From Candidatus Parcubacteria bacterium (GTDB lineage Bacteria; Patescibacteriota; Patescibacteriia; Patescibacteriales; UBA12465): a stretch of DNA of 64,000 bases. Where the stretch lies: the NCBI GenBank assembly GCA_023444045.1, contig JAEZRQ010000002.1, positions 12,102 through 76,101 of the forward strand, in the 5' to 3' direction. Below the pieces are notes generated by a model. That model had not been told where the DNA came from, did no database searches, and saw nothing but the letters and a program-made list of their open reading frames with translations. Position numbers and translations under genes: made by a program. Below, in pieces: positions 3,039 to 30,769 of the stretch. The first letter of the stretch is position 1. Every line of letters starts with the position of its first letter.

Positions 3039-4304
3039 ATGAATCTCTTTTCAAAATATAAAAAACTTTTTCTGGTTATCGCCTTTCTGGCTATCACTTT
3101 TATCCTTGGTTTTTTGCTTTATAGAACTTTTTTTCAGAGCTCTTTGGTCTTGGGACCAGAGCCAATAACAATAACACCAACGACAACACCAGGTAGTCTA
3201 CCTATTTCTGGCGAAGGCACTCCGCAGACTGGCACCAGTGAACCAGGGACGATTCCAGGTAGTGAAAATATTCCTGGTGGTACCGGGATAAATCAACAAC
3301 CCGATCCCAATGCTCCTTCTGATGTCGCTTTAGGAGGCGTAACCAAAACAGAAACACTAACAAGTTCCGCTGGACTAGCGCCCACCCTATCAAACTCTGG
3401 TGGCATTCAATACTATAATAAAGATGACGGTTATTTTTATAAAATAGATGTCAGTGGCAATGCTGTTAAGATGAGTGACCGGGTTTTTTATAATGTTGAG
3501 GATGTTACTTGGGCACCAAATAAAAATAAAGCGGTTTTAGAGTACCCCGATAATACAAAAATTTTATACAACTTTGAAACCAAGAAACAAGTTACCATCC
3601 CTAGCCACTGGGAAGATTTTGATTTTTCTCCCCAAAGCGACCAAATTATTGCTAAAAGCATCGCCCTTGATCCAGATAACCGCTTTTTAACAGTTGCCTC
3701 TGATGATGGTTCTCGGGTTTATAATATTGAAGAAATTGGGTTAAACGCTGATAAAGTAAAAACCGGCTGGTCGCCAAATAATCAAATTGTAGCTACTTAT
3801 GCTGAAAGCATTGATCTAAACAGACAAGAAGTTTTCTTTGTTGGCTTAAATGGTGAAAATTTTAAATCAACTACAGTTGAGGGTCGCGGTTTAGTTTATG
3901 AGTGGTCAAAAACTGGCGACCGCTTGTTATATAGCGCCTACAATACCAACAGCAACATGAAACCATTGCTATGGGTAGTTGATGCTCAGGGTGATAATAT
4001 TAATAAAAATCGTATCAGTCTTGGGATTAATACTTGGGCAGACAAATGTACTTTTGCCACTAACACTGAAGTCTACTGCGCCGTACCGGTTGACTTGGAA
4101 GTGGGGTCGGGGCTTATTAGAGCGCTAGCTGATGATAATCCTGATGAACTATATAAGATAGATTTAAGAACTGGAACTAAGACGCTAGTAGCTATTCCCG
4201 ATGGACAATTCAATATGGAAAATCTGATTGTTAATAATAACCAGAGTCAGTTATTTTTTTCTGACAAGAACACCGGACTAATTCATAAAATAAATTTAAA
4301 ATAG
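3039..4304 (+). CDS. Membrane-anchored beta-propeller protein (TolB/PD40-like repeats) with Pro/Thr/Gly-rich linker
   Basis: 421 aa. N-terminal TM (LFLVIAFLAITFILGFLLY), a PTTTPGS-rich linker, then repeated W/F-S-P-D/N-type blade motifs (VTWAPNKNKAVL, FDFSPQSDQII, TGWSPNNQIVA, YEWSKTGDRLLY). Confidence 0.55.
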   Translation: MNLFSKYKKLFLVIAFLAITFILGFLLYRTFFQSSLVLGPEPITITPTTTPGSLPISGEGTPQTGTSEPGTIPGSENIPGGTGINQQPDPNAPSDVALGGVTKTETLTSSAGLAPTLSNSGGIQYYNKDDGYFYKIDVSGNAVKMSDRVFYNVEDVTWAPNKNKAVLEYPDNTKILYNFETKKQVTIPSHWEDFDFSPQSDQIIAKSIALDPDNRFLTVASDDGSRVYNIEEIGLNADKVKTGWSPNNQIVATYAESIDLNRQEVFFVGLNGENFKSTTVEGRGLVYEWSKTGDRLLYSAYNTNSNMKPLLWVVDAQGDNINKNRISLGINTWADKCTFATNTEVYCAVPVDLEVGSGLIRALADDNPDELYKIDLRTGTKTLVAIPDGQFNMENLIVNNNQSQLFFSDKNTGLIHKINLK

Positions 4305-19792: not shown

Positions 19793-20341
19793 GTGAACTG
19801 GACAATTTTTTTAGTGGTAGTACTTTTAAATACTGCTCTCTGCTTACTCCAATATGGAGCCGAGAGAATTGATAGAAAGAGAGGGAAAATAGCTAAGAGA
19901 CATTCTATTGTCCCTGGAGCCAATAATAAGTTTTTGTACTGGGAAGATTATTACACTCAAACATACGGAGATCTTCTTTGCCTAGTTTGGGTAATGAACG
20001 GGTTTGCTCACTTATTAATAACTGGAAGAATAAGTGCCACTCAATGGCTAATATTTTTCATAGTTAAGATAATAGCTATCACAATTTTTCTTTATCTTAA
20101 TCTAAAACCAGGACATAAAGTTGATTGGGGTTGGCCGACTGAAGGAAAAATAAGTTTGGGTGGCTTTAGCCACTTGCCTTATTTTGGTGGACTATCGGCA
20201 ATGTCAGTAATCTGCCTGATTAACATTATCAGTGGAGAATTAAATGGATTATTGCTTTATAGTACATTAATTGGTGGACTCTCTTATATAGTAACTATAA
20301 TGGCTGATATAAAATCAGGCCATTTCAAAAATAAAAAGTAG
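19793..20341 (+). CDS. Polytopic membrane hypothetical protein
   Basis: The track start is ATG 19754. I prefer GTG 19793, which lies 5 nt after a strong SD AAGGAGG (19781-19787). About 5 TM segments. No family recognised. Confidence 0.55.
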   Translation: MNWTIFLVVVLLNTALCLLQYGAERIDRKRGKIAKRHSIVPGANNKFLYWEDYYTQTYGDLLCLVWVMNGFAHLLITGRISATQWLIFFIVKIIAITIFLYLNLKPGHKVDWGWPTEGKISLGGFSHLPYFGGLSAMSVICLINIISGELNGLLLYSTLIGGLSYIVTIMADIKSGHFKNKK

Positions 20342-20361
20342 CTCGTTAAAGCTACTTTTTT
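20335..20361 (+). terminator. Terminator
   Basis: aaagtagc-tcgttaaa-gctacttt followed by a T-run; overlaps the stop codon. Confidence 0.6.
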
Positions 20362-20366
20362 CATAT

Positions 20367-20397
20367 CTGCGGAGAGGGTGGGATGCGGTTGGAACGG
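20367..20397 (-). pseudogene. tRNA 3'-end fragment (copy A)
   Basis: Minus strand reads ...ATCCCACCCTCTCCGCAGAT, i.e. the end of a T-loop, a T-stem 3' strand, the 7-nt acceptor strand CCTCTCC, discriminator G and a CAG trailer. No D or anticodon arm lies upstream. CCTCTCCGCAGAT is identical to the 3' end plus trailer of tRNA-Ser(UGA) 450 bp away. Confidence 0.55.
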
Positions 20398-20413
20398 TTT
20401 TATAAAAATAAAA

Positions 20414-20450
20414 AAGGAAAACTACTTTCTGTTAGTTTTCCTTATTATTT
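20414..20450. terminator. Bidirectional terminator
   Basis: aaggaaaacta-ctttctgt-tagttttcctt is an 11-bp perfect stem flanked by A/T runs. Confidence 0.7.
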
Positions 20451-20456
20451 GTTTTT

Positions 20457-20675
20457 TTACTTATTACTATTAAACCATTTACGAATCGGTAAATAGTATC
20501 CCGCTAGATAGCCCAGTGTAAATGACGCTATACAAATAATAGCTTTTACTGTGTCATTAAAATTAGACACAACAACTGAACCACCTAACATCAAAAATAT
20601 GGCCCCCATTATCATAGCCGATTCAAATTTTTCACGTTTTTTTGTTAAAAAAACTCTTTTTTCTTCTAAGCTCAT
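20457..20675 (-). CDS. Small two-TM membrane protein
   Basis: 72-aa ORF with two hydrophobic segments (IMGAIFLMLGGSVVV, AIICIASFTLGYLAGYYL), between terminators. Status as a real gene is uncertain. Confidence 0.4.
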   Translation of the reverse strand: MSLEEKRVFLTKKREKFESAMIMGAIFLMLGGSVVVSNFNDTVKAIICIASFTLGYLAGYYLPIRKWFNSNK

Positions 20676-20705
20676 AATATTTGTTTTTAAAGATTAATAT
20701 TTAAT

Positions 20706-20757
20706 TTTGATTAATTACTAAAATCACCAATTTAGATGAACTTAGTAATTAATCAAA
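20706..20757. repeat. 16-bp perfect inverted repeat with 20-nt spacer
   Basis: TTTGATTAATTACTAA (20706-20721) and TTAGTAATTAATCAAA (20742-20757). Located between the tRNA-Ser terminator and the 72-aa ORF start. Confidence 0.8.
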
Positions 20758-20789
20758 TTTAATCTTGTTTTTTAATGACCTAATACAAC

Positions 20790-20820
20790 AAAAAAAGTAT
20801 AACATATTGTTATACTTTTG
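20790..20820 (-). terminator. tRNA-Ser(UGA) terminator
   Basis: Minus strand reads agtataaca-ata-tgttatact followed by TTTTTTT. Confidence 0.65.
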
Positions 20821-20828
20821 TCAATCTG

Positions 20829-20915
20829 CGGAGAGGCAGGGATTCGAACCCTGGGTCGACTTTCATCGACGACAGTTTTCAAGACTGTTCCATTAAACCG
20901 CTCTGGCACCTCTCC
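20829..20915 (-). tRNA. tRNA-Ser (anticodon UGA), class II, CCA not encoded
   Basis: Hand-folded: acceptor GGAGAGG/CCTCTCC, anticodon arm ACAGT-CTTGAAA-ACTGT, long variable arm GTCGA..TCGAC, T arm CAGGG-TTCGAAT-CCCTG, discriminator G. 87 nt. Confidence 0.9.
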
Positions 20916-21004
20916 ATTTCAAAATAAAGATAACATAAGATTAAAAGCAAATCAACCCTTAAAAACAAAAAGCCCCGAACAACTTTTTGTTGTCGGGGCT
21001 TTCT

Positions 21005-21433
21005 TTAAAATATTATTCTAAAGATGGAAAGATACACAACCTGGTGCCTATTAGAAAATTGCTTTTCTTCCAGATACAGAAAATCCTCTCTCCATTCATG
21101 TCCGTTGTTATAAAGGCAACGAACCACCTTTTTCCCTTTATTATTAAGGTAAGTGGTCCCTAAAAAGACCAAATAGACACCTTTAAGATGTTGCGGTATC
21201 CGGTGACCATTCCGCAAGAAAAATTTGATAGAGCCAGCACCCAACGGTATTCGCCACGGCCTTTTCTTCAAGTCTTTAATAAGATCAACGCCTCTGACAC
21301 TTACCCCTTTCTCCTGCTCCGCGGACAAAAAAGTAGAGATTTTACCAAATCTCACTTTTAAATCTTTCTTAATATCATTAACCACCTGCCAGCCCCTAAC
21401 GCCTGACTCTCCTAATAAAGAAACTTTGAACAT
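21005..21433 (-). CDS. Hypothetical protein (last gene of the RT-associated block)
   Basis: 142-aa ORF with a strong SD (AGGAGGTaatattATG), lying 50 nt downstream of the SdpI-like gene. No family recognised. Confidence 0.6.
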   Translation of the reverse strand: MFKVSLLGESGVRGWQVVNDIKKDLKVRFGKISTFLSAEQEKGVSVRGVDLIKDLKKRPWRIPLGAGSIKFFLRNGHRIPQHLKGVYLVFLGTTYLNNKGKKVVRCLYNNGHEWREDFLYLEEKQFSNRHQVVYLSIFRIIF

Positions 21434-21483
21434 AATATTACCTCCTATTTTTTAAGTTACCGGAGATAATTACAGCAAATAAA

Positions 21484-22158
21484 CTACCTTTTGTCAACTT
21501 CTTTCTTTTCTTGACTATAGAGCCAGTAAGAATAAACAAATAAAGTAAAAACAACAAATATTGCTCCACCCAGCAGAACAAAAATGGCTGTTTTTGAGTT
21601 AAGATAGGGAGTAAACACTAGTAAAATTCCCCAAATAACAAAAAGATATGAGCCTAGGTGGTGAGTTTTATCCCAAACCTTCTCTGAAGAAATAGTCCAA
21701 GAGGTTCTAATACCGACAAAGAAATTTCTTTTAATTTTTCTAAAATAAAATCCTAGAATTATCATCAACAGCCCAATAACTGTAGTGACAATAATCCCAA
21801 TATTAAGGTTATACCCCAGATTAACCAAGGTGGCCGCTGCAAAAATTATGAACATAACTGAAAGAATGAGATTGCGCATCACTAAGTAAGCTTTAGAAAA
21901 TTCCTGATATCTTTCACTCATTGGATCAAACTTTGGCATTAATGTTAAAAGTAAATAGATAAAGAAAATTAAGCCTGGAAAAAATAAAGAATGAAACAAG
22001 CGGCTACTCCAACCATCAGCTTCGCCACTAAAATTCCAGTGAGTAATTACCAAATCAGGTAATTGAGGGTAAGCCCAAATAGCAACTGCCAAACTTAAAA
22101 ACAATAAACCGGCAGGCCAAAGTTCTGTTTTTAGTGAATAGTTAATGGGATTTTTCAT
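21484..22158 (-). CDS. SdpI/YhfL-family membrane protein (DUF1648 + SdpI domains)
   Basis: 224 aa. ITHWNFSGEADGWSSR is a DUF1648-type motif after the first TM. A later FFVGIRTSWTISSEKVWDKTH is an SdpI-type motif. About 6 TM. Confidence 0.6.
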   Translation of the reverse strand: MKNPINYSLKTELWPAGLLFLSLAVAIWAYPQLPDLVITHWNFSGEADGWSSRLFHSLFFPGLIFFIYLLLTLMPKFDPMSERYQEFSKAYLVMRNLILSVMFIIFAAATLVNLGYNLNIGIIVTTVIGLLMIILGFYFRKIKRNFFVGIRTSWTISSEKVWDKTHHLGSYLFVIWGILLVFTPYLNSKTAIFVLLGGAIFVVFTLFVYSYWLYSQEKKEVDKR

Positions 22159-22159
22159 A

Positions 22160-23338
22160 TTACTTATTTAAATTATAATGAAGCTCAAAAGTTTGGTTAA
22201 AAGCGCTAACTAGAGAGCTAATATTTGAAACCATAACTGATTCGTTATTAGAGAAAAAACCGCTAGAGCTCCAATTATTAGTGCCAAAAGCAACAGTATC
22301 ATCCGTAATTAGTAAATGATGATGCAAGAAAGAATTAAATTTATCATCACCTTTATGTTGTCTAACAGCTTCATTTCTCTTAGCATCATCTATCAGTTCT
22401 AAATTAGTTAAACCTTGATATCTCTTTTGCTTAGACATAAAAGGCATAATAGAATCTTTAATCTTAAAATTAAAGTCATCAACAATTACCTTAACTGGAA
22501 TATCCTTAGCTTTTTGTACTAAGTTAACAGCGGTGTCTTTGTCGGTAAAATGCCAAATCATGGCTTTAACATTATTTTCCGCCTTATAAATTAAATTTAA
22601 CAATCGGTTTTTTAAACTATTATCTCCGGAACTCGGTAGAAACCAGACCTCTAAAAACCCTTCCGGATAATTAATTAAAGCGGCAAAAGAATTATAATTT
22701 TCACCCCTGACCGGTACCCTATCTAATTCTAAAAGTAGGCGGTCAAATTCTTCGCCAAAAACATTTACTAACTCTGGACGATCAGTTTCCATAATAAAGC
22801 TAGGGTCATACTGAGCCTGAATATAAGTAAAGTTAGAAGAACCAAAAAATAACTTTCCCGATTCTAGTCCACGATCAATAATCATAAACTTGTGATGCAT
22901 GTATCCGCTGGATCCAAAGGGAGAAAAGCTTATTTTTAAATTATCACTCTTTTGCTCAAAGAATTTCTCCATGCTAGTAACATACTTATTACTAAAAACA
23001 ATATTGACCTTAACCCCACGATTAACTGCTCGATAAATAGCTTCCTTAATCAAAGAATCGTCCATGGAATACATAGCAATTTCAACTGTTGAGCTGGCTG
23101 AGTCAATTGCTTTAGTAGCTAACTGTGAAAAATAGTCTGAGCCCACTTCATTATTAAAGTGAATCTCGCTCGAAAAAGGCTCAGAAATATTAATTACTTT
23201 CTCCGGGGCAAAATCTTCCACTCTTGGCGGTTCATAAAAGAAAGACACCTGCTTATAAAGAACTAGAGTGATAACAACACCTAAGACCAGGATGAATAAA
23301 AGCCCTAATTTATTTTTATATTTTTTAAGCCAGTTCAT
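22160..23338 (-). CDS. Membrane-anchored phospholipase D / HKD-superfamily protein (one canonical, one degenerate HKD)
   Basis: 392 aa with an N-terminal TM (LGLLFILVLGVVITLVLY). First motif HHKFMIIDRG...GSSNFT is canonical HxK(x)4D...GSxN. Second motif HHHLLITDD...GTNNW has the Lys replaced by His. Confidence 0.75.
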   Translation of the reverse strand: MNWLKKYKNKLGLLFILVLGVVITLVLYKQVSFFYEPPRVEDFAPEKVINISEPFSSEIHFNNEVGSDYFSQLATKAIDSASSTVEIAMYSMDDSLIKEAIYRAVNRGVKVNIVFSNKYVTSMEKFFEQKSDNLKISFSPFGSSGYMHHKFMIIDRGLESGKLFFGSSNFTYIQAQYDPSFIMETDRPELVNVFGEEFDRLLLELDRVPVRGENYNSFAALINYPEGFLEVWFLPSSGDNSLKNRLLNLIYKAENNVKAMIWHFTDKDTAVNLVQKAKDIPVKVIVDDFNFKIKDSIMPFMSKQKRYQGLTNLELIDDAKRNEAVRQHKGDDKFNSFLHHHLLITDDTVAFGTNNWSSSGFFSNNESVMVSNISSLVSAFNQTFELHYNLNK

Positions 23339-25022
23339 ATTGATGATGATAATTTAAATTATTTATTTTATTAATTGAAAAAACTATGATAATGGAATCA
23401 GTAAGCTCATTACTTAATAATTTTAGCATATTATCAATACTCTGATAACCTAAATCCAGCCACTGATTATCAATAATAATAATTTGAGGCCTTTTAAAAA
23501 GGCAGTGAAGAACATGTAAGGCGAAAGATGAGGAATTGTTGCCCCAAGCATATGAGGCAAGGCGATTAAAGTTATTCTCATTTTTAAGTGCTTCCCCTAA
23601 CTCAGGAAAGCGATTAGCAATACTTAAAACTTTTTCTATCTCTTCAAACCGAGTCTCTTCCCTGTCTTTACCAATAATCACTTCAATTAAACTTTTTTCT
23701 GATTTAAATTCTTTATCAAAAAAATATGTTTGGCTATCTTTAAGCTGATACTGTGTAAAATCTAATCGCTTACCATCTACTTTTACTTTAATCCCCTTAG
23801 AAGTATAAGCGGAGACTCCAGCAAACAACTTCGCTAAAACCGTCTTACCGGAAAAGTTTGGGCCCACTAAGAGATAGCGACCGCCAACTTTAAAATCAAA
23901 AGAAACATCTTTATAATATCGCCCTGTTTTAAACAACTTTGCTTTAGAAATGTAAAAAGATAGACTATTTTTAATTTTAAGAGGATATTTTTGCGACGCA
24001 TCTTTAAATAATTTAATATCAGTTAAAGATAGACCTAATTTTCCCGGAAAAAGATAGAGCCCGATTCGTAACGACTCCATAACAGTCCTTGAGAGATAGA
24101 TAAGTAAAAATAAATATAAGAACTTAGAGCTTGAGTCTATTAAATTAATTTGCGAAATTATTTGATCATAAAAAATATTAGCTAAAATAGAAATCATCAA
24201 AAACACTAAAAATACTATCTTAAAGCTCATTTTCATCCACAGATCACGCCTGATTCTAAAAATTGAGTCAAAGCCAACTAAATTATTAAATTTTTTCAAT
24301 AAACTTTTTTCCAACTTAAAAATTTTATTAAAATATTTTTCTGATAAATTTAAATCTATATGTCGTATTATTTGAGAATAAAAAGTTACCTCCTGAGAAA
24401 CATATTTTTTCACAATTAAATAAGAACTCAGAGCAATTACAGAAGAGATAAGTACTAAAAATATTAAAATAAGCCAAACATTTAAATCTGCCAAATAAGC
24501 AACGAGGAGAGCGCAACCTAAATACACCACCCACCTAAAAAAACCAAAGAAAGAATTAGATAACCCCATTGAAACCAGGGGCAAATGATAAGATATCTTG
24601 GCAATTAAATCAGCTTGTTTTGTAAAACTCATTTTTTCCCTTTTTTGCCGCAAATAATTTTTAAAAATCCTGTTTCTTAGATAATTAATAAAGAAGACAA
24701 CAAAGGTTTTCTCCTGTTTGATTGAAAAAAATGAAGTAAAAATAAAAATAATAACCAAGCCAAAAAACGGTAGCCAGAAAGAAAAATTAGACCAATAAAA
24801 ATTACTGGAAATTAGATGATTGCGACTAACAAATATTAAAAAAGTCTCAGCCAAGCCCTGAAAAAATAACAAGAATATCGCCGACCAAAAAAGGGACTGA
24901 TTCTTCCTTAGAAAAAAAGATAAACTCCTATAAAAAGGCCGCTTGCCGATAATGGGTCTAACAACAAGCCTCTCTTGTCTAACTCTTTTTATTAAATCAA
25001 TCTGCTCGTTAACGTTTCTCAT
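23325..25022 (-). CDS. ABC-exporter-like protein with degenerate nucleotide-binding domain
   Basis: 565 aa. About 6 N-terminal TM helices in an ABC_membrane-like layout. Walker A GPNFSGKT is present. The signature position reads GNNSS instead of LSGGQ, Walker B is IIIIDNQ (no catalytic Glu), and there is no H-loop His. 14-nt overlaps with both neighbours. Confidence 0.7.
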   Translation of the reverse strand: MRNVNEQIDLIKRVRQERLVVRPIIGKRPFYRSLSFFLRKNQSLFWSAIFLLFFQGLAETFLIFVSRNHLISSNFYWSNFSFWLPFFGLVIIFIFTSFFSIKQEKTFVVFFINYLRNRIFKNYLRQKREKMSFTKQADLIAKISYHLPLVSMGLSNSFFGFFRWVVYLGCALLVAYLADLNVWLILIFLVLISSVIALSSYLIVKKYVSQEVTFYSQIIRHIDLNLSEKYFNKIFKLEKSLLKKFNNLVGFDSIFRIRRDLWMKMSFKIVFLVFLMISILANIFYDQIISQINLIDSSSKFLYLFLLIYLSRTVMESLRIGLYLFPGKLGLSLTDIKLFKDASQKYPLKIKNSLSFYISKAKLFKTGRYYKDVSFDFKVGGRYLLVGPNFSGKTVLAKLFAGVSAYTSKGIKVKVDGKRLDFTQYQLKDSQTYFFDKEFKSEKSLIEVIIGKDREETRFEEIEKVLSIANRFPELGEALKNENNFNRLASYAWGNNSSSFALHVLHCLFKRPQIIIIDNQWLDLGYQSIDNMLKLLSNELTDSIIIVFSINKINNLNYHHQYELA

Positions 25023-26229
25023 AATGAAATTTTTGATAAATTTTATACAAAGAATTTATTCTAAAAGGTGCAATCAGCTCTTTTAATTTTTTGCGATTAC
25101 GCGGCGAATATTTTTCATAAAAAAACTTAGTTAGTATCTTAAAAAAGGATTCGGAAATTTTTTTGATTTGTTCTGAGTTATTAATTTGAGGCTTACTTTT
25201 AACCATTAAATAAAAAATATTATTAAAATTAGTCTTTTCTCGGCTCATTGTTTTTTTCAAAATACTTATTTTAGCTGTCAGAGAATAGTGCTTATAAGCT
25301 AAAATCCTCTTCCACTCCGTTTCTATTCTTTTGACAAAATTTGGCTCTAGACTAATTACCCCGTTATTAAAGTGATAACCTAAATATGAAAATCCTTCAC
25401 TAGCTAATCCTAAAAACTTCTTACTCTGATTAATTTCTAGCCCTAAATCATTTAAATCACTAAATATTTGATCCGAGAGATTAATTAATTTTTTACTGTC
25501 TCTATCTAAGAGAGCAATGTCATCGCCCACACGCACATAATAATCAACTTGATCTTGATATTTAAAGTCAAACTCTGTGAGATATAGATTAACAAATAGG
25601 GCAATCAGCGGCACCCCCTGAATTAGTCCTTTTGGAGGCAGTTCTAGTTCACTACCACGATAAACTTTGTTAAAAATAAAAAGAGCTAAGATATTTAATA
25701 TCCTTTCATCATCAAATAAACTTTTTAGTTTCAAAAACATTAACTCGCGGCTAATCCGGTCAGAGTAATTTTTAAGGTCAATTATCAGGGCACCGTAATT
25801 ATTAAAATGGCGGCGATATTCTTGGCAGAAAAATTTAGCCGCTAGGTGCGGCGGCTTACCGGGACGATATGAAAATAAGTGTTTAGAATATCTTTTTTCA
25901 AATTCTGGCAAAACAACTCTATAAATAGCTTGTGCCTTAATCCTTTCTTTAATATTGTAAACAAAAATTTCCCGAAATTCTCCGGGTTTATTATTTTTTG
26001 GTATTTTAACAGAGAGGGCTGGTTCTAATTCTTTAAAACTACTAAGTTCGCTGCGAACTTGAGAGATTATTTCTTGCGACCTTAATTCCAAATCCTTCAA
26101 AAAAACGTTATCAAGGCCATGATATTTAAAATTCCGATGATCGGCTGAAAATTCTTTAATAATTTCTAAATAAGCCTCTTCTAAATTAGCTAGGCTAAGT
26201 ATTTGGTCAAACATAGTTTTAATAATCAT
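25009..26229 (-). CDS. Stand-alone reverse transcriptase, group-II-intron-like motifs, no maturase/endonuclease or intron RNA
   Basis: RT motifs are readable: IPKNNKPGEFREI (1), FSYRPGKPPHLA (2a), IIDLKNYSDRI (3), GLIQGVPLIALFVNLYL (4), YYVRVGDDIALL (5, VGDD in place of YADD), GLEINQSKKFL (6), FSYLGYHF (7). Start is uncertain: ATG 26229 (MIIKTMFDQ) or 26214 (MFDQILSLANLEEAY). The track's TTG start at 26307 would translate a GC hairpin. Confidence 0.85.
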   Translation of the reverse strand: MIIKTMFDQILSLANLEEAYLEIIKEFSADHRNFKYHGLDNVFLKDLELRSQEIISQVRSELSSFKELEPALSVKIPKNNKPGEFREIFVYNIKERIKAQAIYRVVLPEFEKRYSKHLFSYRPGKPPHLAAKFFCQEYRRHFNNYGALIIDLKNYSDRISRELMFLKLKSLFDDERILNILALFIFNKVYRGSELELPPKGLIQGVPLIALFVNLYLTEFDFKYQDQVDYYVRVGDDIALLDRDSKKLINLSDQIFSDLNDLGLEINQSKKFLGLASEGFSYLGYHFNNGVISLEPNFVKRIETEWKRILAYKHYSLTAKISILKKTMSREKTNFNNIFYLMVKSKPQINNSEQIKKISESFFKILTKFFYEKYSPRNRKKLKELIAPFRINSLYKIYQKFHYEKR

Positions 26230-26320
26230 TCCTAAGATATCTAGTAAATAGATATGATTTAATTCCACTGAGGCCGCTCCCCCTCCCGGGGGTAGTAGTG
26301 TCGACAACTACTTACTGATA

Positions 26321-26400
26321 ATAAACCGATATTAACGATATTTATCATATTTTCAGAAAGTAGTTAGTAATATCCCAAAAATGGGTGTTAGGAATGATTT
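26321..26400. repeat. Repeat module R1 (proximal to RT)
   Basis: ataaaCcgatattaacgat...taatatcccaaaaatgggtgtt... aligns with R2 at roughly three quarters identity, with one 1-nt indel by eye. The shared blocks are CGATATTAACGAT and TAATATCCCAAAAATGGGT. Confidence 0.8.
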
Positions 26401-26509
26401 TAAAAAAGACTAAACCTTCAAGATGCTTAAAAAATTAAGCATAATTTAAATCAATGAGAACCCGCAGAAAATAAATACCCATGAAAATAAGCTCAACTAT
26501 TTTTTAAAA

Positions 26510-26588
26510 ATAAATCGATATTAACGATGTTATTATATTTTTAATAAATAGTTGTTAATATCCCAAAAATGGGTTTTGAAGGTTTTTG
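26510..26588. repeat. Repeat module R2 (distal)
   Basis: ataaaTcgatattaacgat...taatatcccaaaaatgggtttt... lies 189 bp from R1 in the same orientation. Confidence 0.8.
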
Positions 26589-26607
26589 GCAATATAATTG
26601 CTTAAAT

Positions 26608-26616
26608 ATTATAACA
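26608..26616 (-). promoter_or_regulatory. Extended -10 (TGTTATAAT) reading toward the RT
   Basis: The plus strand attataaca at 26608-26616 is TGTTATAAT on the minus strand. The same 9-mer is used upstream of the thrS leader, the 7865 operon and recG. Confidence 0.45.
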
Positions 26617-26752
26617 TAAATAATAAAAAAAGGCTTGTTAATAATAAAAGTTGACATATCTTGATTTTTTAACCAGGCAATGTTAGAGTTTACTTACTAG
26701 ATTTAGTATTAACTCTCTTAAAAAAATCAGCTTCGGCTGGAAAGGAGGTCTC

Positions 26753-27154
26753 ATGAAAGCACTTTTAAAATCTCTTAAAAGAATCGCCTACTGGGTGATG
26801 AAAGACATGTTTATGATCTTAGTCGCCGCTACCTTTGGCGGTGGTTCACTTTATTTGTGGAACAACATTTACCTCTCCCTTTTCTTAGCCTTTGTAGCTG
26901 GGTATCTCTATATCGGCTATCAAGTTTCATTTCATGGTAAAGGCAGGGGCGAGCAGATATTGTTCTTTTGCAATATCATTGCTATTGGGGTAATGGCGAT
27001 TTCCGGAATATTAGGATTTGTCTTCGGACAAATTGCCATTGGGATAATAGCCGTTTTCATCCTTATATTCCTGCTATTACTGCAAGGGTTATATGAATTC
27101 GGAAAAGCAATTGAGGCGCGTGAATCATACCTAAGAAGCATGGAAGGTGATTAG
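26753..27154 (+). CDS. Small polytopic membrane protein
   Basis: 133 aa with a strong SD (AAAGGAGGTctcATG) and 3-4 TM segments. No family recognised. Confidence 0.6.
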   Translation: MKALLKSLKRIAYWVMKDMFMILVAATFGGGSLYLWNNIYLSLFLAFVAGYLYIGYQVSFHGKGRGEQILFFCNIIAIGVMAISGILGFVFGQIAIGIIAVFILIFLLLLQGLYEFGKAIEARESYLRSMEGD

Positions 27155-27207
27155 GCAACCACATAAAAAAACTCCTTAGACCATAACGGTTTAAGGAGTT
27201 TTTGTTT

Positions 27208-29433
27208 TTAATCGCGATATAGCTTCATCAGTAATGAATTAGCAACTACACTGACTGAAGAAAATGACATGGCCAGGGCCGCGATCATAGGGTCAAGCAT
27301 TATACCCCAGATTGGATATAATAATCCGGCTGCAATCGGGATACCTAAAGAGTTATAAACAAAAGCCCAAAATAAATTCTGTCTTATTTTTCTTAAAGTA
27401 TATTTAGAGATACTAATCGCGGAAATCACATCCCTTAAATCATTTTTTACTAAAATTATCTCACCCGCCTCCATAGCAACATCGGTTCCAGAGGCCATGG
27501 CAATGCCTAGGTCCGCTTGAGCTAGAGCTGGAGCATCATTAATGCCATCGCCAACCATCGCTACCACTAAACCAGCATCCTGAAGTTCTTTAATTTTTTT
27601 TGCCTTATCAGCTGGGTAGACATTAGCTAAGACATTTTCAATTCCTAATTTATTAGCAATTGCCGCAGCCACCTTTTCATTGTCGCCACTTATTAAATAA
27701 ATCTTGCGCCCTCTTTTTTTTAAGTTTGAGATAGCTTCTAAGCTGCTTTCTTTAATATCATCAATCAAACCGATAAGACCGGCAATTTGCTGACCATGAA
27801 CGACATATAATGGGGTTTTTCCAGCCTCTGCTAAAGAATTAAAACTATCTTCAACAGCTAATGGAATTTCTATCCCTTCTTCTAATAACAATTTTTTATT
27901 ACCTAAAAGTAGTTTAGTTTGGTGCTCATGGCAGAAAGCCTTAAGCCCACGGCCTTCTTTTTCTTCAAGACTAGTTACTTCAATAGTCTTAATTCCCTGA
28001 TTATTTATGTAAGAAAAAACCGCTTCTGATAAGGGGTGTTTGGAGTGCCTAGCTAAAGAACCAGAAATTTTTAGAATTTTTTCCTGAGGAAAATTAAAAC
28101 TAATAATCTCTACAACCTCTGGAGTGCCTTTAGTTAGGGTGCCGGTTTTATCAAAGACAAAAGTGTTAACCTTATTGGCCGCCTCTAAAGCGGCCAAACT
28201 TTTAATTAAAATCCCCCTTTTGGCCGCGAGACCAGCGCCCATCATGACAGCGGTTGGAGTTGCCAGTCCTAAAGAACAAGGACAAGCAATAATTAAAACC
28301 GAAACAAAAGCTGTTAAAGCAAATGAAAACTCAAAACCAAGGATTAACCAAATAAGAAGGGACAAAAAAGCAATAGTAATTACAGCGGGGGTAAAATAAT
28401 AAGCTACTTTATCTACTAGTAATTGAATCGGTGATTTGGAAGCAATGGCGTTTTCCATTACTTTAATAATCTGAGCCAACATTGTCTCTTCGCCGATGCT
28501 AGAAACCTTAAATCTTAAAACACTAGTCTTATTAATCGTGCCACCAATTAATAAGTCACCGTTTTTCTTAAGAACTGGAATACTCTCCCCGGTGATAGCG
28601 CTTTCATCAATCGTTGACTGTCCAAAGATTATTTGTCCATCAAGTGGCACTTTATCACCAGGCTTTACAATTAAAATATCCCCCGGAATAACTTCAGAAA
28701 TCTGAACTTTTATTTCCTGCTCATTGCGCCAAACAATAGCAGTATTTGGCTGTAGGCCGACTAGTTTTTTAATTGCTTCACCGGCTTTACCTTTAGTTTT
28801 TTCTTCTAGATATTTTCCTAAAATAATAAAAACCAAAATAAACCCAGCACTCTCAAAATAGACATGAAAATCATCATATTGGCCAAAAAATAAATTAGAT
28901 GAAAATAAAATAACAATTGAGTAGATAAAAGCAGCCGCAGTCCCAACAGCAATTAAACTATCCATGTTTGGCCTAAGTTTTAATAACTTAGAAAAACCAG
29001 AGTGATAAATTGATCTGTTAACAAAGATAATTAAAGAAGTGAGAATTAATTGGCCTAAATAGTTGGCAGCAGGAGAAATATTTATCATCGGTAAACCAAA
29101 CATCTGCCCCATAGAAAGATAGAACAAGGGTAAACCAAAAACTAGTGACAACACAAAAAGACGGCGGTATTTTTTAACTAAATCGGGCGTCTTTCTGGTG
29201 TCTTGATTAGCGAGTCTAGCACTATAGCCAGTTTGTTTAATTAAAGAAATTATTTCAGGGGTGCTAATGTCTATTTCTTTAAAAGAAATAAGGGCCTTAT
29301 TAGTAGCTAAACTGATTTGTGCTTCAGCAATACGAGTGTCTTTATCTAAGACTCTTTGGATATTAGCGACACAAGAAGCACAAGTCATGCCATCAATATT
29401 TAATTCTATTTTTTTCATATATTTATTCAACAA
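27208..29433 (-). CDS. copA: Copper-translocating P1B-type ATPase
   Basis: 741 aa. N-terminal HMA GMTCASCV, TM CPC motif (IIACPCSLGLATP), DKTGTLT, GDGINDAP. Confidence 0.95.
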   Translation of the reverse strand: MLNKYMKKIELNIDGMTCASCVANIQRVLDKDTRIAEAQISLATNKALISFKEIDISTPEIISLIKQTGYSARLANQDTRKTPDLVKKYRRLFVLSLVFGLPLFYLSMGQMFGLPMINISPAANYLGQLILTSLIIFVNRSIYHSGFSKLLKLRPNMDSLIAVGTAAAFIYSIVILFSSNLFFGQYDDFHVYFESAGFILVFIILGKYLEEKTKGKAGEAIKKLVGLQPNTAIVWRNEQEIKVQISEVIPGDILIVKPGDKVPLDGQIIFGQSTIDESAITGESIPVLKKNGDLLIGGTINKTSVLRFKVSSIGEETMLAQIIKVMENAIASKSPIQLLVDKVAYYFTPAVITIAFLSLLIWLILGFEFSFALTAFVSVLIIACPCSLGLATPTAVMMGAGLAAKRGILIKSLAALEAANKVNTFVFDKTGTLTKGTPEVVEIISFNFPQEKILKISGSLARHSKHPLSEAVFSYINNQGIKTIEVTSLEEKEGRGLKAFCHEHQTKLLLGNKKLLLEEGIEIPLAVEDSFNSLAEAGKTPLYVVHGQQIAGLIGLIDDIKESSLEAISNLKKRGRKIYLISGDNEKVAAAIANKLGIENVLANVYPADKAKKIKELQDAGLVVAMVGDGINDAPALAQADLGIAMASGTDVAMEAGEIILVKNDLRDVISAISISKYTLRKIRQNLFWAFVYNSLGIPIAAGLLYPIWGIMLDPMIAALAMSFSSVSVVANSLLMKLYRD

Positions 29434-30769
29434 TAAAACGGCCGTTAATCATCCCCATCCAGCAAGAAAAAGGAATAACCCCCTTATCTTTAGGGGTAAA
29501 TTCTAAAGTAACCTGATCGCCATTTTTTAATTTACCGGTAGTAAGACCTAAACGACTAATAATTACTTCATCGCTACAACCGGTAACTCTAATAGCATTA
29601 ACCGTGAACTTAACTGGTATGCCTTTTTTAATCCTGAATTCTTTTTGAACAAAGCCATAATTAATATCCAATTGGACGGTTTGATAATCGCCATTTTTTA
29701 ATTCACTACTAGAATCCAACTTAGAGCGGGAAAAAATATTCAAGGAGTTAAGAGAAAATTTAGACCCAGAAAGCACTAGTCCGGTATTAAAAGAGTAAAG
29801 GGCAAATAGAATAATAATAGCGGCAATTATTTTTTTTAGTATTCTAAAACGATTTTCTTGAGCATAGCTAGAGCCAAGTCCTACAGAGAACAAAACAGGG
29901 GTGGTGCCAAGAGCGAAAAAAGTCATTATTAAAGCTCCCTGCAAGAAGCTACCAGAAGCTACCGCCGCCACCTGCATTGACTGGGTAAAGCCGCAAGGCA
30001 AAAAGAAAGTTAAAGCACCAATAGTTGTAATTAGATAAGGCTTATTCTCTGTTTTAATATTTAATATTTTGCGACTCAGGCTTTTTGGTAAATAAAGTCC
30101 AAGTCTAGTAATACTTGGTAGCAGCCCCATAATATTTAAACCCACATAAAACATGATAAGGGCCACTAAAATCATCAAAAAACTAGTTACTGCCGGGGAA
30201 TAATTAATGACGCCCCCTAAAGATCCAAGAATGCCACCAAGGATAAAGAAGCCAACAATACGACCGGAATGGAAATATAATTGCGGCATTACTCTATCTG
30301 TTAAAGATATTTTATGACCATCATTAATTTTAAGACCACTTGAAAAGCTAAGAACTATCCCGCCAGTGATGGCTAAACAGGTAGATAAAGAAGCTACAAA
30401 GCCAATAAACAAAGCAACCATAAAACTAACGTCGCGATTTAAATCGGGGAAAAATCTAATTATATTAAACTTAGAGACGATAGTAATAATTAGAAAAATA
30501 CCAATAAAGATTGCTAGAATTTCCCACCAATCTTTTTTCTTTAAGTTACCAGTAACAGGGGCTTCTGGCTTATTAACAACTTTATAACCGCAACTTGTTA
30601 CTATTTTTTTTATTTGATTATCATTAATATTATCAGCTTCAATCTCTAAATCACCGCGCTTATGAGAAACTTTTATTTTAGCATCACTAATTACATCTTT
30701 GATGCTATTTTCAATTAACAACTCACAACTAGCACAATGAAGGCCAGAGAGATAAAATTTTCTTTTCAT
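29423..30769 (-). CDS. Three-domain fusion: HMA metallochaperone domain + DsbD/CcdA- or TauE-like permease + C-terminal cupredoxin-like domain
   Basis: 448 aa. N-terminal GLHCASCELLIE (HMA), about 6-7 central TM helices, and a C-terminal IPVKFTVNAIRVTGCSDEVI...IPFSCWMGMINGRFIV (Cys...Cys-x-Met, cupredoxin_1-like). 11-nt overlap with copA. Confidence 0.6.
   Translation of the reverse strand: MKRKFYLSGLHCASCELLIENSIKDVISDAKIKVSHKRGDLEIEADNINDNQIKKIVTSCGYKVVNKPEAPVTGNLKKKDWWEILAIFIGIFLIITIVSKFNIIRFFPDLNRDVSFMVALFIGFVASLSTCLAITGGIVLSFSSGLKINDGHKISLTDRVMPQLYFHSGRIVGFFILGGILGSLGGVINYSPAVTSFLMILVALIMFYVGLNIMGLLPSITRLGLYLPKSLSRKILNIKTENKPYLITTIGALTFFLPCGFTQSMQVAAVASGSFLQGALIMTFFALGTTPVLFSVGLGSSYAQENRFRILKKIIAAIIILFALYSFNTGLVLSGSKFSLNSLNIFSRSKLDSSSELKNGDYQTVQLDINYGFVQKEFRIKKGIPVKFTVNAIRVTGCSDEVIISRLGLTTGKLKNGDQVTLEFTPKDKGVIPFSCWMGMINGRFIVE

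Follow-up and report, generated by a model that had tools for sequence, protein, structure and literature searches.

Unexpected kinds of DNA synthesis have recently come to light in systems that pair a reverse transcriptase (RT) with a dedicated non-coding RNA (ncRNA), i.e., retrons, DRT2, DRT9, and DRT10. To our knowledge, those characterized so far are confined to cultivable Proteobacteria or Firmicutes, with RTs of the retron or UG clades. The class 2 UG RTs DRT2, DRT9, and DRT10 have an upstream ncRNA in which stem-loops branch from a central stem and the template loop follows a stable stem on its 3' side (PMC12632851, PMC12483538); DRT10 requires a short A-B-A' repeat in that loop (PMC12632851). 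UG26 is a further class 2 UG/Abi group, consisting of a stand-alone RT without a fused domain (PMC9226505). The locus described here lies in a 64-kb window of a Candidatus Parcubacteria genome (contig JAEZRQ010000002.1, positions 12,102 to 76,101), and thus in a member of the ultra-small, host-dependent Patescibacteria. It consists of an RT gene on the minus strand, two downstream genes for an ABC-like and a PLD-like protein, and, 5' of the RT, a leader free of open reading frames (ORFs), which evidently comprises two tandem copies of one dedicated ncRNA of ~175-190 nt each. The combination of a group-II-like RT, a covarying pseudoknotted RNA, tandem RNA copies, and an apparently membrane-associated ABC-like/PLD-like pair is what sets the locus apart.

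DRT9 (UG28) and DRT10 (UG17), and more loosely DRT2, resemble this arrangement in having a structured ncRNA of ~140-280 nt directly upstream on the same strand, a large closing stem with several stem-loops and a single-stranded loop 3' of a stable stem (PMC12632851, PMC12483538), and an RT of ~400-500 aa without a fused enzymatic domain. The RT here nevertheless falls outside the UG28 and UG17 groups (PADLOC gave Drt9 57 bits with E 3.3e-16, which is below generic RT and UG26, UG17 81 bits, and Drt2 29 bits), and the RNA differs in its covarying pseudoknot, its lack of an Rfam match, the possibility of tandem copies, and its Patescibacteria host.

Folded as RNA of the RT strand, positions 26200-26610 (411 nt) reach -100.5 kcal/mol with z = -6.08, and none of 100 dinucleotide shuffles was as stable; the structure of the leader is thus well beyond chance. 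The gap upstream of the RT contains ORFs of 23-38 aa only. Both results agree with a first-pass annotation, made from the sequence alone, which had called the region ORF-free and highly structured on the RT strand. The minimum-energy fold consists of two adjacent domains of the same architecture: a closing helix P1, a hairpin P2 (CCCA-UUUU-UGGG), a ~20-bp hairpin P3 with an apical loop of 7 nt, a variable P4, a single-stranded J4/5, a hairpin P5, and the 3' strand of P1. In addition, the strand just 3' of P2, GAUAUUA, is complementary to UAAUAUC in the P3 loop, giving an H-type pseudoknot that is invisible to nested folding. Folded singly, copy B, which is next to the RT, has z = -5.55, and copy A, upstream of it, has z = -4.87. 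A covariance model (CM) built from 19 sequences, CM R1, matched copy B at 142.1 bits (E 2.8e-34, 26417-26209) and copy A at 91.9 bits (E 1e-23, 26583-26414, filters off); CM R2, a shorter P2-pseudoknot-P3 model, gave 57.4 bits on copy A. Covariance-model searches found no other copy in the 64-kb window. The two copies are 57.8% identical overall and 80% identical in P2-P3, and copy A retains all helices by means of other sequence, as a comparison of the P1 arms in Table 1 illustrates. The most conserved unpaired nucleotides are those of J4/5 (consensus CUCAUUGGAUUUAAUU) and an AAAAC junction after the 5' arm of P1.

Table 1. Features of the RNA-RT locus, with positions in the window; RNA elements are as predicted from folding and covariance models.
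Feature	Position	Strand	Remarks
RNA copy A	26412..26585	-	Upstream "orphan" copy without a start codon; from CM, fold z, sister-strain identity
Copy A P1	26585-26576 / 26421-26412	-	AAACCUUCAA/UUGAAGGUUU
Copy A P2	26573-26562	-	Helix
Copy A pseudoknot	5' strand 26562-26556; 3' strand 26523-26517	-	3' strand in P3 loop
Copy A P3	26554-26494	-	Helix
Copy A P4	~26490-26459	-	Variable
Copy A J4/5	26458-26443	-	Single-stranded
Copy A P5	26442-26423	-	The 8-bp hairpin of the first-pass annotation
RNA copy B	26217..26405	-	RT-proximal; from CM, fold z, dot-bracket helices, covariation in 33 homologous RNAs
Copy B P1	26405-26388 / 26235-26217	-	UUUUAAAAUCAUUCCUAA/UUAGGAAUGAUUAUUAAAA; includes the 12-nt inverted repeat
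Copy B P2	26385-26374	-	Helix
Copy B pseudoknot	GAUAUUA 26374-26368; UAAUAUC 26334-26328	-	3' strand in P3 loop
Copy B P3	26366-26305	-	Helix
Copy B P4	26298-26274	-	Variable; includes GC hairpin 26292-26279
Copy B J4/5	26272-26256	-	Single-stranded
Copy B P5	26255-26237	-	Hairpin
Promoter, extended -10 TGTTATAAT	26608..26616	-	~23 nt upstream of copy A P1
Reverse transcriptase CDS, 401 aa	25009..26214	-	Pfam RVT_1, E 5e-13; conserved ATG 26214
ABC-like protein, 565 aa	23325..25022	-	Pfam ABC_tran, E 2.4e-8; N-terminal 6-TM-type domain plus nucleotide-binding domain
PLD-family protein, NucT/Nuc-like, 392 aa	22160..23338	-	Pfam PLDc_2, E 4.5e-27; N-terminal hydrophobic anchor

Most individual elements noted in the first pass can be placed within this architecture. 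The perfect hairpin ATGCTTAA-AAAA-TTAAGCAT (26423-26442) is part of the minimum-energy fold, where it forms P5 of copy A, and the GC hairpin CCCCC-GGGA-GGGGG (26279-26292) is found there within P4 of copy B. The 12-nt inverted repeat (26224-26235 / 26388-26399) is real and lengthens to 19 nt with 89% complementarity (26217-26235 / 26388-26406), corresponding to P1 of copy B. The two ~80-nt repeat modules (R1 and R2 of the first pass; direct repeats D1/D2, spaced by 188/189 nt with 73-83% identity) likewise exist, but they are the P2-pseudoknot-P3 cores of two full RNA copies rather than modules of 80 nt. A proposed AGTAGT/ACTACT hairpin (26294-26312) is unsupported because it competes with the conserved P3, whose 3' strand is the 5' arm of the hairpin, and because it is disrupted by a G-to-A change in the sister strain L056, where P3 still forms. 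Overall, a structured RNA tied to the RT had been recognized correctly, whereas the pseudoknot, the presence of two whole copies, and the operon of RT, ABC-like, and PLD-like genes had been missed.

The extended -10 pointing to the RT is present as originally noted and is the single promoter preceding the two copies and the operon; there is too little space for a second promoter between the copies, and this -10 element, read from the sequence, probably drives both RNA copies and the operon. A -10-like box, often TGnTATAAT or TGnTATACT, precedes P1 by 7-30 nt in 25 of 32 homologous RNAs.

The comparative set comprised fifty genome loci with RT homologues. In nearly all of them an ORF-free gap of at least 200-330 nt lies 5' of the RT, and independent single-sequence folds of these gaps yielded the same architecture. 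CM matches were found directly 5' of the RT in ~40 loci, some of the divergent ones picked up only with CM R2, and in the nine most divergent the pseudoknot complementarity was recognized by eye, each with a different sequence (e.g., GUUGCUC/GAGCAAC, GUUAUCA/UGAUAAC, and GUUGUUUG/CAAACAAC). Overall, the RNA is present in ~45 homologous loci. The CM R1 matches include those 5' of the RT on a metagenome contig and on the lone RT-bearing viral contig, which carries the only true RT homologue among viral contigs. A metagenome pattern scan for orphan RNAs returned one locus, again with the RNA, the RT, and the ABC-like and PLD-like genes.

In a CM-fitted alignment of 33 sequences, 92.5% of cells were paired, as against 40-49% when the 3' partners were slid by 1-3 columns; compensatory double changes occurred in 30 of the 34 pairs, and none of 500 shuffles matched the observed values. 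Because a CM-fitted alignment is biased towards its model, the pseudoknot was retested on a plain MAFFT alignment of 32 sequences, where its six pairs were 99.5% paired and all six showed compensatory changes (slid controls, 21-44%). In 30/33 RNAs, 16-25 bp of P3 enclose the pseudoknot loop despite widely differing sequence, and frequent U-G pairs in P1, with the U in the 5' arm, are compatible with the RT strand only. The comparison thus shows a fold that is maintained, with covariation, throughout the RT family down to ~35% RT identity, and that is therefore under selection and not decaying. Rfam 15 recognized none of this: in the leader, scanned at E <= 10, no match was better than E ~1 and those found were snoRNA/miRNA noise, so that neither retron msr families nor group II domains, both named earlier as targets for an Rfam scan, were matched; 10 kb around the locus (20000-30000) gave only tRNAs and noise at E <= 1, and seven homologous loci gave only tRNAs at the gathering threshold. 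At minimum, then, the alignments define a structured RNA family that is new and whose pseudoknot signal is unusually clean.

Duplication of the RNA is not confined to the window. The sister strain L056, with an RT 90% identical, keeps the tandem arrangement, and its nucleotide identity is 94.8% in copy A and 92.6% in copy B, whereas third positions of codons in the three operon genes reach 70.6%, 83.2%, and 83.4%. By this measure the orphan copy A is evidently under constraint, and as much so as copy B. Tandem copies also occur in L001, L029, and L050. The upstream copies of L029 and L050 (RTs 86% identical) are orthologous, with 87% identity versus 75% for the RT-proximal copies, and the tandem state is thus older than the split of these two. 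The upstream copy of L001 runs into two RT codons and a stop, beyond which come an intrinsic terminator and then a new promoter that serves the second copy. Ten loci in which the gap before the RT is long were searched by CM with filters off, and no further tandem copies were detected.

The extra copy in L001 (3510-3713) has no promoter of its own, and a tRNA gene (3420-3503) lies 7 nt upstream. It ends in ATGTTT-CGC-TAG, a truncated RT start, before the terminator, and looks like the scar of a second system that was lost or replaced. Two or three divergent paralogous RNA-RT-ABC-PLD systems coexist in some genomes, with RT identities of 39-64%: L044, L045, and L048 (all in one metagenome-assembled genome), L004/L049, and L025/L029. 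The pseudoknots differ within the pairs (GAUAUUA in L004 and GGCAUUA in L049; GGUAUUA in L025 and GGCAUUA in L029); in the three-system genome, GUUGCUC is common to L044 and L045, and L048 has GUUGUUUG.

The RT itself has ~100 close homologues of ~400 aa, the named ones being Patescibacteria such as Falkowbacteria and Magasanikbacteria. Searched exhaustively, 1.84 billion cluster representatives yielded only 46 clusters at E <= 1e-30 and, below that, other RT types; the family is thus small and well delimited. In a PDB profile search the best matches were group II intron RTs (GsI-IIC RT, 6e-35, and the E. rectale intron protein) and RT-Cas1, followed at lower levels by DRT9 (1.5e-17), DRT2 (6e-11), G2L4 (1e-9), and retron Ec86 (1e-6). 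An AlphaFold2 model (pLDDT 93.8) was structurally closest to GsI-IIC RT (TM 0.78) and then to DRT9 (TM 0.66), G2L4, and the RT of diversity-generating retroelements. The group II RT/maturase model TIGR04416 gave 105.9 bits, far under its cutoff of 300. With PADLOC, the generic RT, UG26, and group II models scored between 1e-31 and 1e-36, and the only retron model to match was RT_II-A at E 9.2e-5. UG26 was the best named UG model (107 bits, E 1.8e-31) and, like the RT here, has no fused domain, but the match is moderate and covers only the core (model positions 42-325 of 398), leaving the C-terminal third unmatched, and PADLOC sets no family cutoff for it; UG26 is reported to be sometimes linked to a Vsr-like endonuclease, with no ncRNA described for it in published work and no evidence of ABC-like or PLD-like partners. 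The RT is group-II-intron-like and is neither a retron RT nor a member of a named DRT group, and the first-pass remark that its motifs are not retron-like was correct. Its active site reads RVGDD, and R[VI]GDD replaces YxDD throughout the family.

The Gly and both Asp residues of this motif are nearly invariant. Two homologues carry Pfam matches to viral RNA-dependent RNA polymerase families (PF04196 and PF00680). A putative steric-gate Tyr (NYSD) is conserved in the family, however, and the enzyme is therefore still expected to be a DNA polymerase despite these matches.

Translation of the RT starts at a conserved ATG, 26214 (MFDQI...); most homologues begin with MF, and L001-L004 have an in-frame stop immediately 5' of this codon. 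The 3' arm of copy B P1 ends 3 nt 5' of it. The inverted repeat had been thought to occlude the RT start, and P1 does reach to within 3 nt of the start codon; the start had been put at 26229, though, which is 15 nt too far upstream. That ATG lies within the P1 arm sequence GGRAUGAU and is in frame by accident, its counterparts in relatives being out of frame or blocked by a stop. Automatic gene calls push the RT N-terminus into the RNA gene, here by initiating at TTG 26307 (MSTLLPPGGG..., 26259-26307, minus strand); protein P0001 is likewise called with an extension, MELNHIYLLDILG.... Such N-terminal extensions represent translated P4/J4/5/P5/P1, as had been noted for the TTG-initiated one, and almost certainly constitute annotation artefacts.

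The three genes overlap stop to start in the window (RT-ABC, 25009-25022; ABC-PLD, 23325-23338). Clustering of ORFs over 51 loci gave an operon of the RT (~407 aa), the ABC-like protein (~570 aa; 49/51 loci, at a constant relative position), and the PLD-like protein (~409 aa; 47/51 loci). The ABC-like protein has a hydrophobic, exporter-type N-terminal half and mostly retains Walker A, but has Asn in place of Glu after the Walker B Asp and lacks LSGGQ; judged from these motifs, it may bind ATP without hydrolyzing it. The PLD-like protein has a conserved first HxK motif, its second motif being HxH, and matches NCBIfam NucT models at 1e-14, under their cutoffs. Hydrophobic N-terminal segments suggest that both proteins are located at the membrane. 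The effector of DRT10 is also a membrane protein (SLATT); the partners here are instead ABC-like and PLD-like, and no SLATT gene is present. PADLOC defense systems gave no match to either partner or to the three-gene set. Flanking genes vary and are housekeeping in character (NusB, RNase III, PilT, Fpg, a DEAD-box helicase, an aminoacyl-tRNA synthetase), and a role in defense is therefore not supported by context. A full-text literature search, whose coverage left out most subscription-journal papers, found no description of the RT/ABC-like/PLD-like operon or its RNA.

The interpretation that we rank first, with a probability of roughly 0.6, is that the RNA serves as an RT-bound scaffold or template, in the manner of the DRT9 and DRT10 RNAs. 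The RT would bind the P2/pseudoknot/P3 core as a scaffold, by analogy to the class 2 systems DRT2/9/10 and to group II intron RT-RNA complexes, and would copy a single-stranded stretch into cDNA, for which the conserved J4/5, just 3' of the variable P4, is the best candidate template. The cDNA product or the ribonucleoprotein (RNP) might then control the membrane-associated ABC-like and PLD-like partners. In addition, P1 or a terminator would limit expression of the RT and so keep its level low relative to the RNA: in close relatives the 3' arm of P1 ends 3-7 nt before the RT ATG, and in seven distant loci (L024, L028, L030, L031, L033, L036, and L037) this abutment is replaced by a GC-rich terminator-like hairpin and U tract, within the last ~40 nt between the RNA and the RT, that ends ~5 nt before the ATG. 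Although it lacks a start codon, copy A is as constrained as copy B and retains all helices at only 57.8% identity, which we count as evidence for a role beyond that of a leader; the recurrence of tandem copies in L001, L029, and L050, the terminator behind the upstream L001 copy, and the terminator hairpins between RNA and RT in the seven distant loci are counted likewise. Four-nucleotide direct repeats of the A-B-A' type occur in J4/5 in 18 of 26 unique sequences, where other windows of these RNAs lead one to expect 9.2; this enrichment would fit a DRT10-like template loop and is suggestive only, being computed without regard to phylogeny and in AU-rich sequence. DRT9, in contrast, has a conserved poly-U template tract, and there is no conserved U tract in the consensus of the 33 RNAs or in its J4/5. 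Should the RNA indeed have such a template or scaffold role, the group-II-like branch would join those RTs that have dedicated ncRNAs, and a 401-aa RT with a ~180-nt RNA would make a compact RNP for biochemistry.

Several observations weigh against this interpretation. The RNA invariably occupies a 5' position on the same strand, and its P1 or terminator abuts the RT start, which a purely cis-acting leader would also explain. Known riboswitches include tandem aptamers, and so a second copy is compatible with cis regulation. The whole intergenic region is conserved in L056, including a non-RNA spacer that is 92.2% identical, and the argument for purifying selection on the copies is thereby weakened. 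Furthermore, both its sequence and its fold place the RT closer to group II intron RTs than to DRT2/9/10, and we know of no free-standing group-II-like RT that uses a dedicated ncRNA template.

Ranked second, and possible though clearly less probable, is that the RNA is nothing other than a cis-regulatory 5' leader, either an autoregulatory operator bound by the RT or a ligand riboswitch, that controls translation of, or readthrough into, the RT operon. The RNA always lies in the operon 5' untranslated region; the P1 arm of the closer relatives and the terminator-like hairpin of the seven distant loci sit immediately before the ATG, and interchangeable expression platforms of this kind, a start-covering helix or a terminator, are typical of cis-regulators. 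The group-II-intron-like nature of the RT adds to this: group II intron-encoded proteins (IEPs) bind an RNA element containing their own ribosome-binding site and start codon, as LtrA does at DIVa, where autoregulation is established, and P1 here covers the region just before the RT start codon. What a leader accounts for poorly is copy A, which lacks both a start codon and an RT-proximal position but shows, in two independent lineages, conservation no lower than that of copy B; likewise, the extra copy of L001 has its own terminator, and a promoter intervenes before the RT. No alternative anti-terminator or anti-P1 pairing was seen in the loci inspected, and a five-helix, pseudoknotted RNA of ~180 nt that has been found with one RT family only exceeds the needs of a simple operator. 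A third possibility, that the RNA is the remnant of a mobile group II intron or retroelement, with leftover intron domains and tandem copies that are scars of insertion or recombination, appears very unlikely. Group II intron RTs are the nearest relatives of the RT by sequence and fold, the genomic contexts vary, some genomes have two or three paralogous systems, and the L001 extra copy, which by ending with the first two RT codons and a stop gives the impression of a second unit that was cut short, is as similar to the L005 RNA as it is to its own neighbor. However, Rfam detected no group II ribozyme domain in the leader, in 20000-30000, or in the seven homologous loci, the RT stop overlaps the next gene and so leaves no space for domains V and VI, the TIGR04416 score is about a third of its cutoff, and viral contigs hold only the one true homologue; covariation of the RNA across RTs down to ~35% identity argues for selection rather than decay. 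Group II introns also differ in having their ORF within domain IV and YADD as the motif; the RT here has VGDD and is coupled in translation to two genes of cellular type.

We consider a retron more improbable still. In that case P1 would be the a1/a2 repeat and the RNA an msr-msd, reverse-transcribed to msDNA from the 2'-OH of a branching G. The ncRNA does lie upstream of the RT, with inverted repeats (P1, which covaries in the 33 RNAs) flanking it next to the RT start and a long internal hairpin, and an RT followed by ATPase-like and nuclease-like genes recalls the tripartite type I retrons (PMC7736814). The RT is dissimilar, though, in that RT_II-A and Ec86 are matched far less well than the group II and UG models and structures, the junction 3' of the 5' arm has the consensus (C/U)AA(A/C)AC with no conserved priming G, the Rfam msr families are unmatched, and the pseudoknot architecture is foreign to msr-msd RNAs. 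The first-pass suggestion of a retron- or DRT-like template RNA thus holds in part: the DRT ncRNAs are the best available analogy, but that to retrons fails for want of a branching G and of a good retron RT match. Finally, the repeats and hairpins might have been chance features of AT-rich intergenic DNA, as the leader has a GC content of 0.24-0.33 and short two-copy repeat families are often chance matches. Fold z values of -4.9 to -6.1, with no shuffle as good, and a fold that is conserved and covaries in dozens of independent genomes refute this.

A bolder form of the scaffold or template interpretation, which we regard as rather unlikely as it stands, is that Patescibacteria possess a hitherto unnoticed RT RNP that operates in the way of DRT10 or telomerase and is coupled to a membrane module. 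In this scheme the RNA, with its pseudoknot, would hold the J4/5 template next to P4, as a boundary stem, for repetitive cDNA synthesis by the RT; the membrane module would consist of the non-hydrolyzing ABC-like protein and an anchored PLD-type nuclease or phospholipase; and the cDNA or RNP would feed an abortive-infection effector or an export/processing route. Tandem copies might supply one RT with two different templates or scaffolds. Telomerase RNA similarly combines a pseudoknot with a short single-stranded template, here a candidate one beside a possible boundary stem and with A-B-A' repeats in the loop; the domain content of the RT is unlike that of TERT, however, and the hosts are bacterial, so this is an analogy only.

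Two further arrangements were considered. A hidden ORF of the DRT2 'neo' type was not found in the 33 RNAs, in which the longest stretch without a stop varies in strand and frame. A diversity-generating retroelement, in which a template and a variable repeat would differ mainly at adenines and the variable repeat would lie in a target gene, was rejected: copy A differs from copy B at every base type, and neither copy is coding.

On the other side of the leader, the divergent gene at 26753-27154 (+) encodes a hydrophobic 133-aa product without a Pfam match; its synteny is kept in the sister strain (82% nucleotide identity), and it lies outside the conserved operon in other loci. Between this putative membrane protein gene and the convergent gene for a P-type ATPase (27208-29433, minus strand), a strong 16-bp hairpin with flanking A and T runs at 27167-27203 (+) looks like a bidirectional terminator. 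Downstream of the operon, a tRNA is located at 20829-20915 (-).

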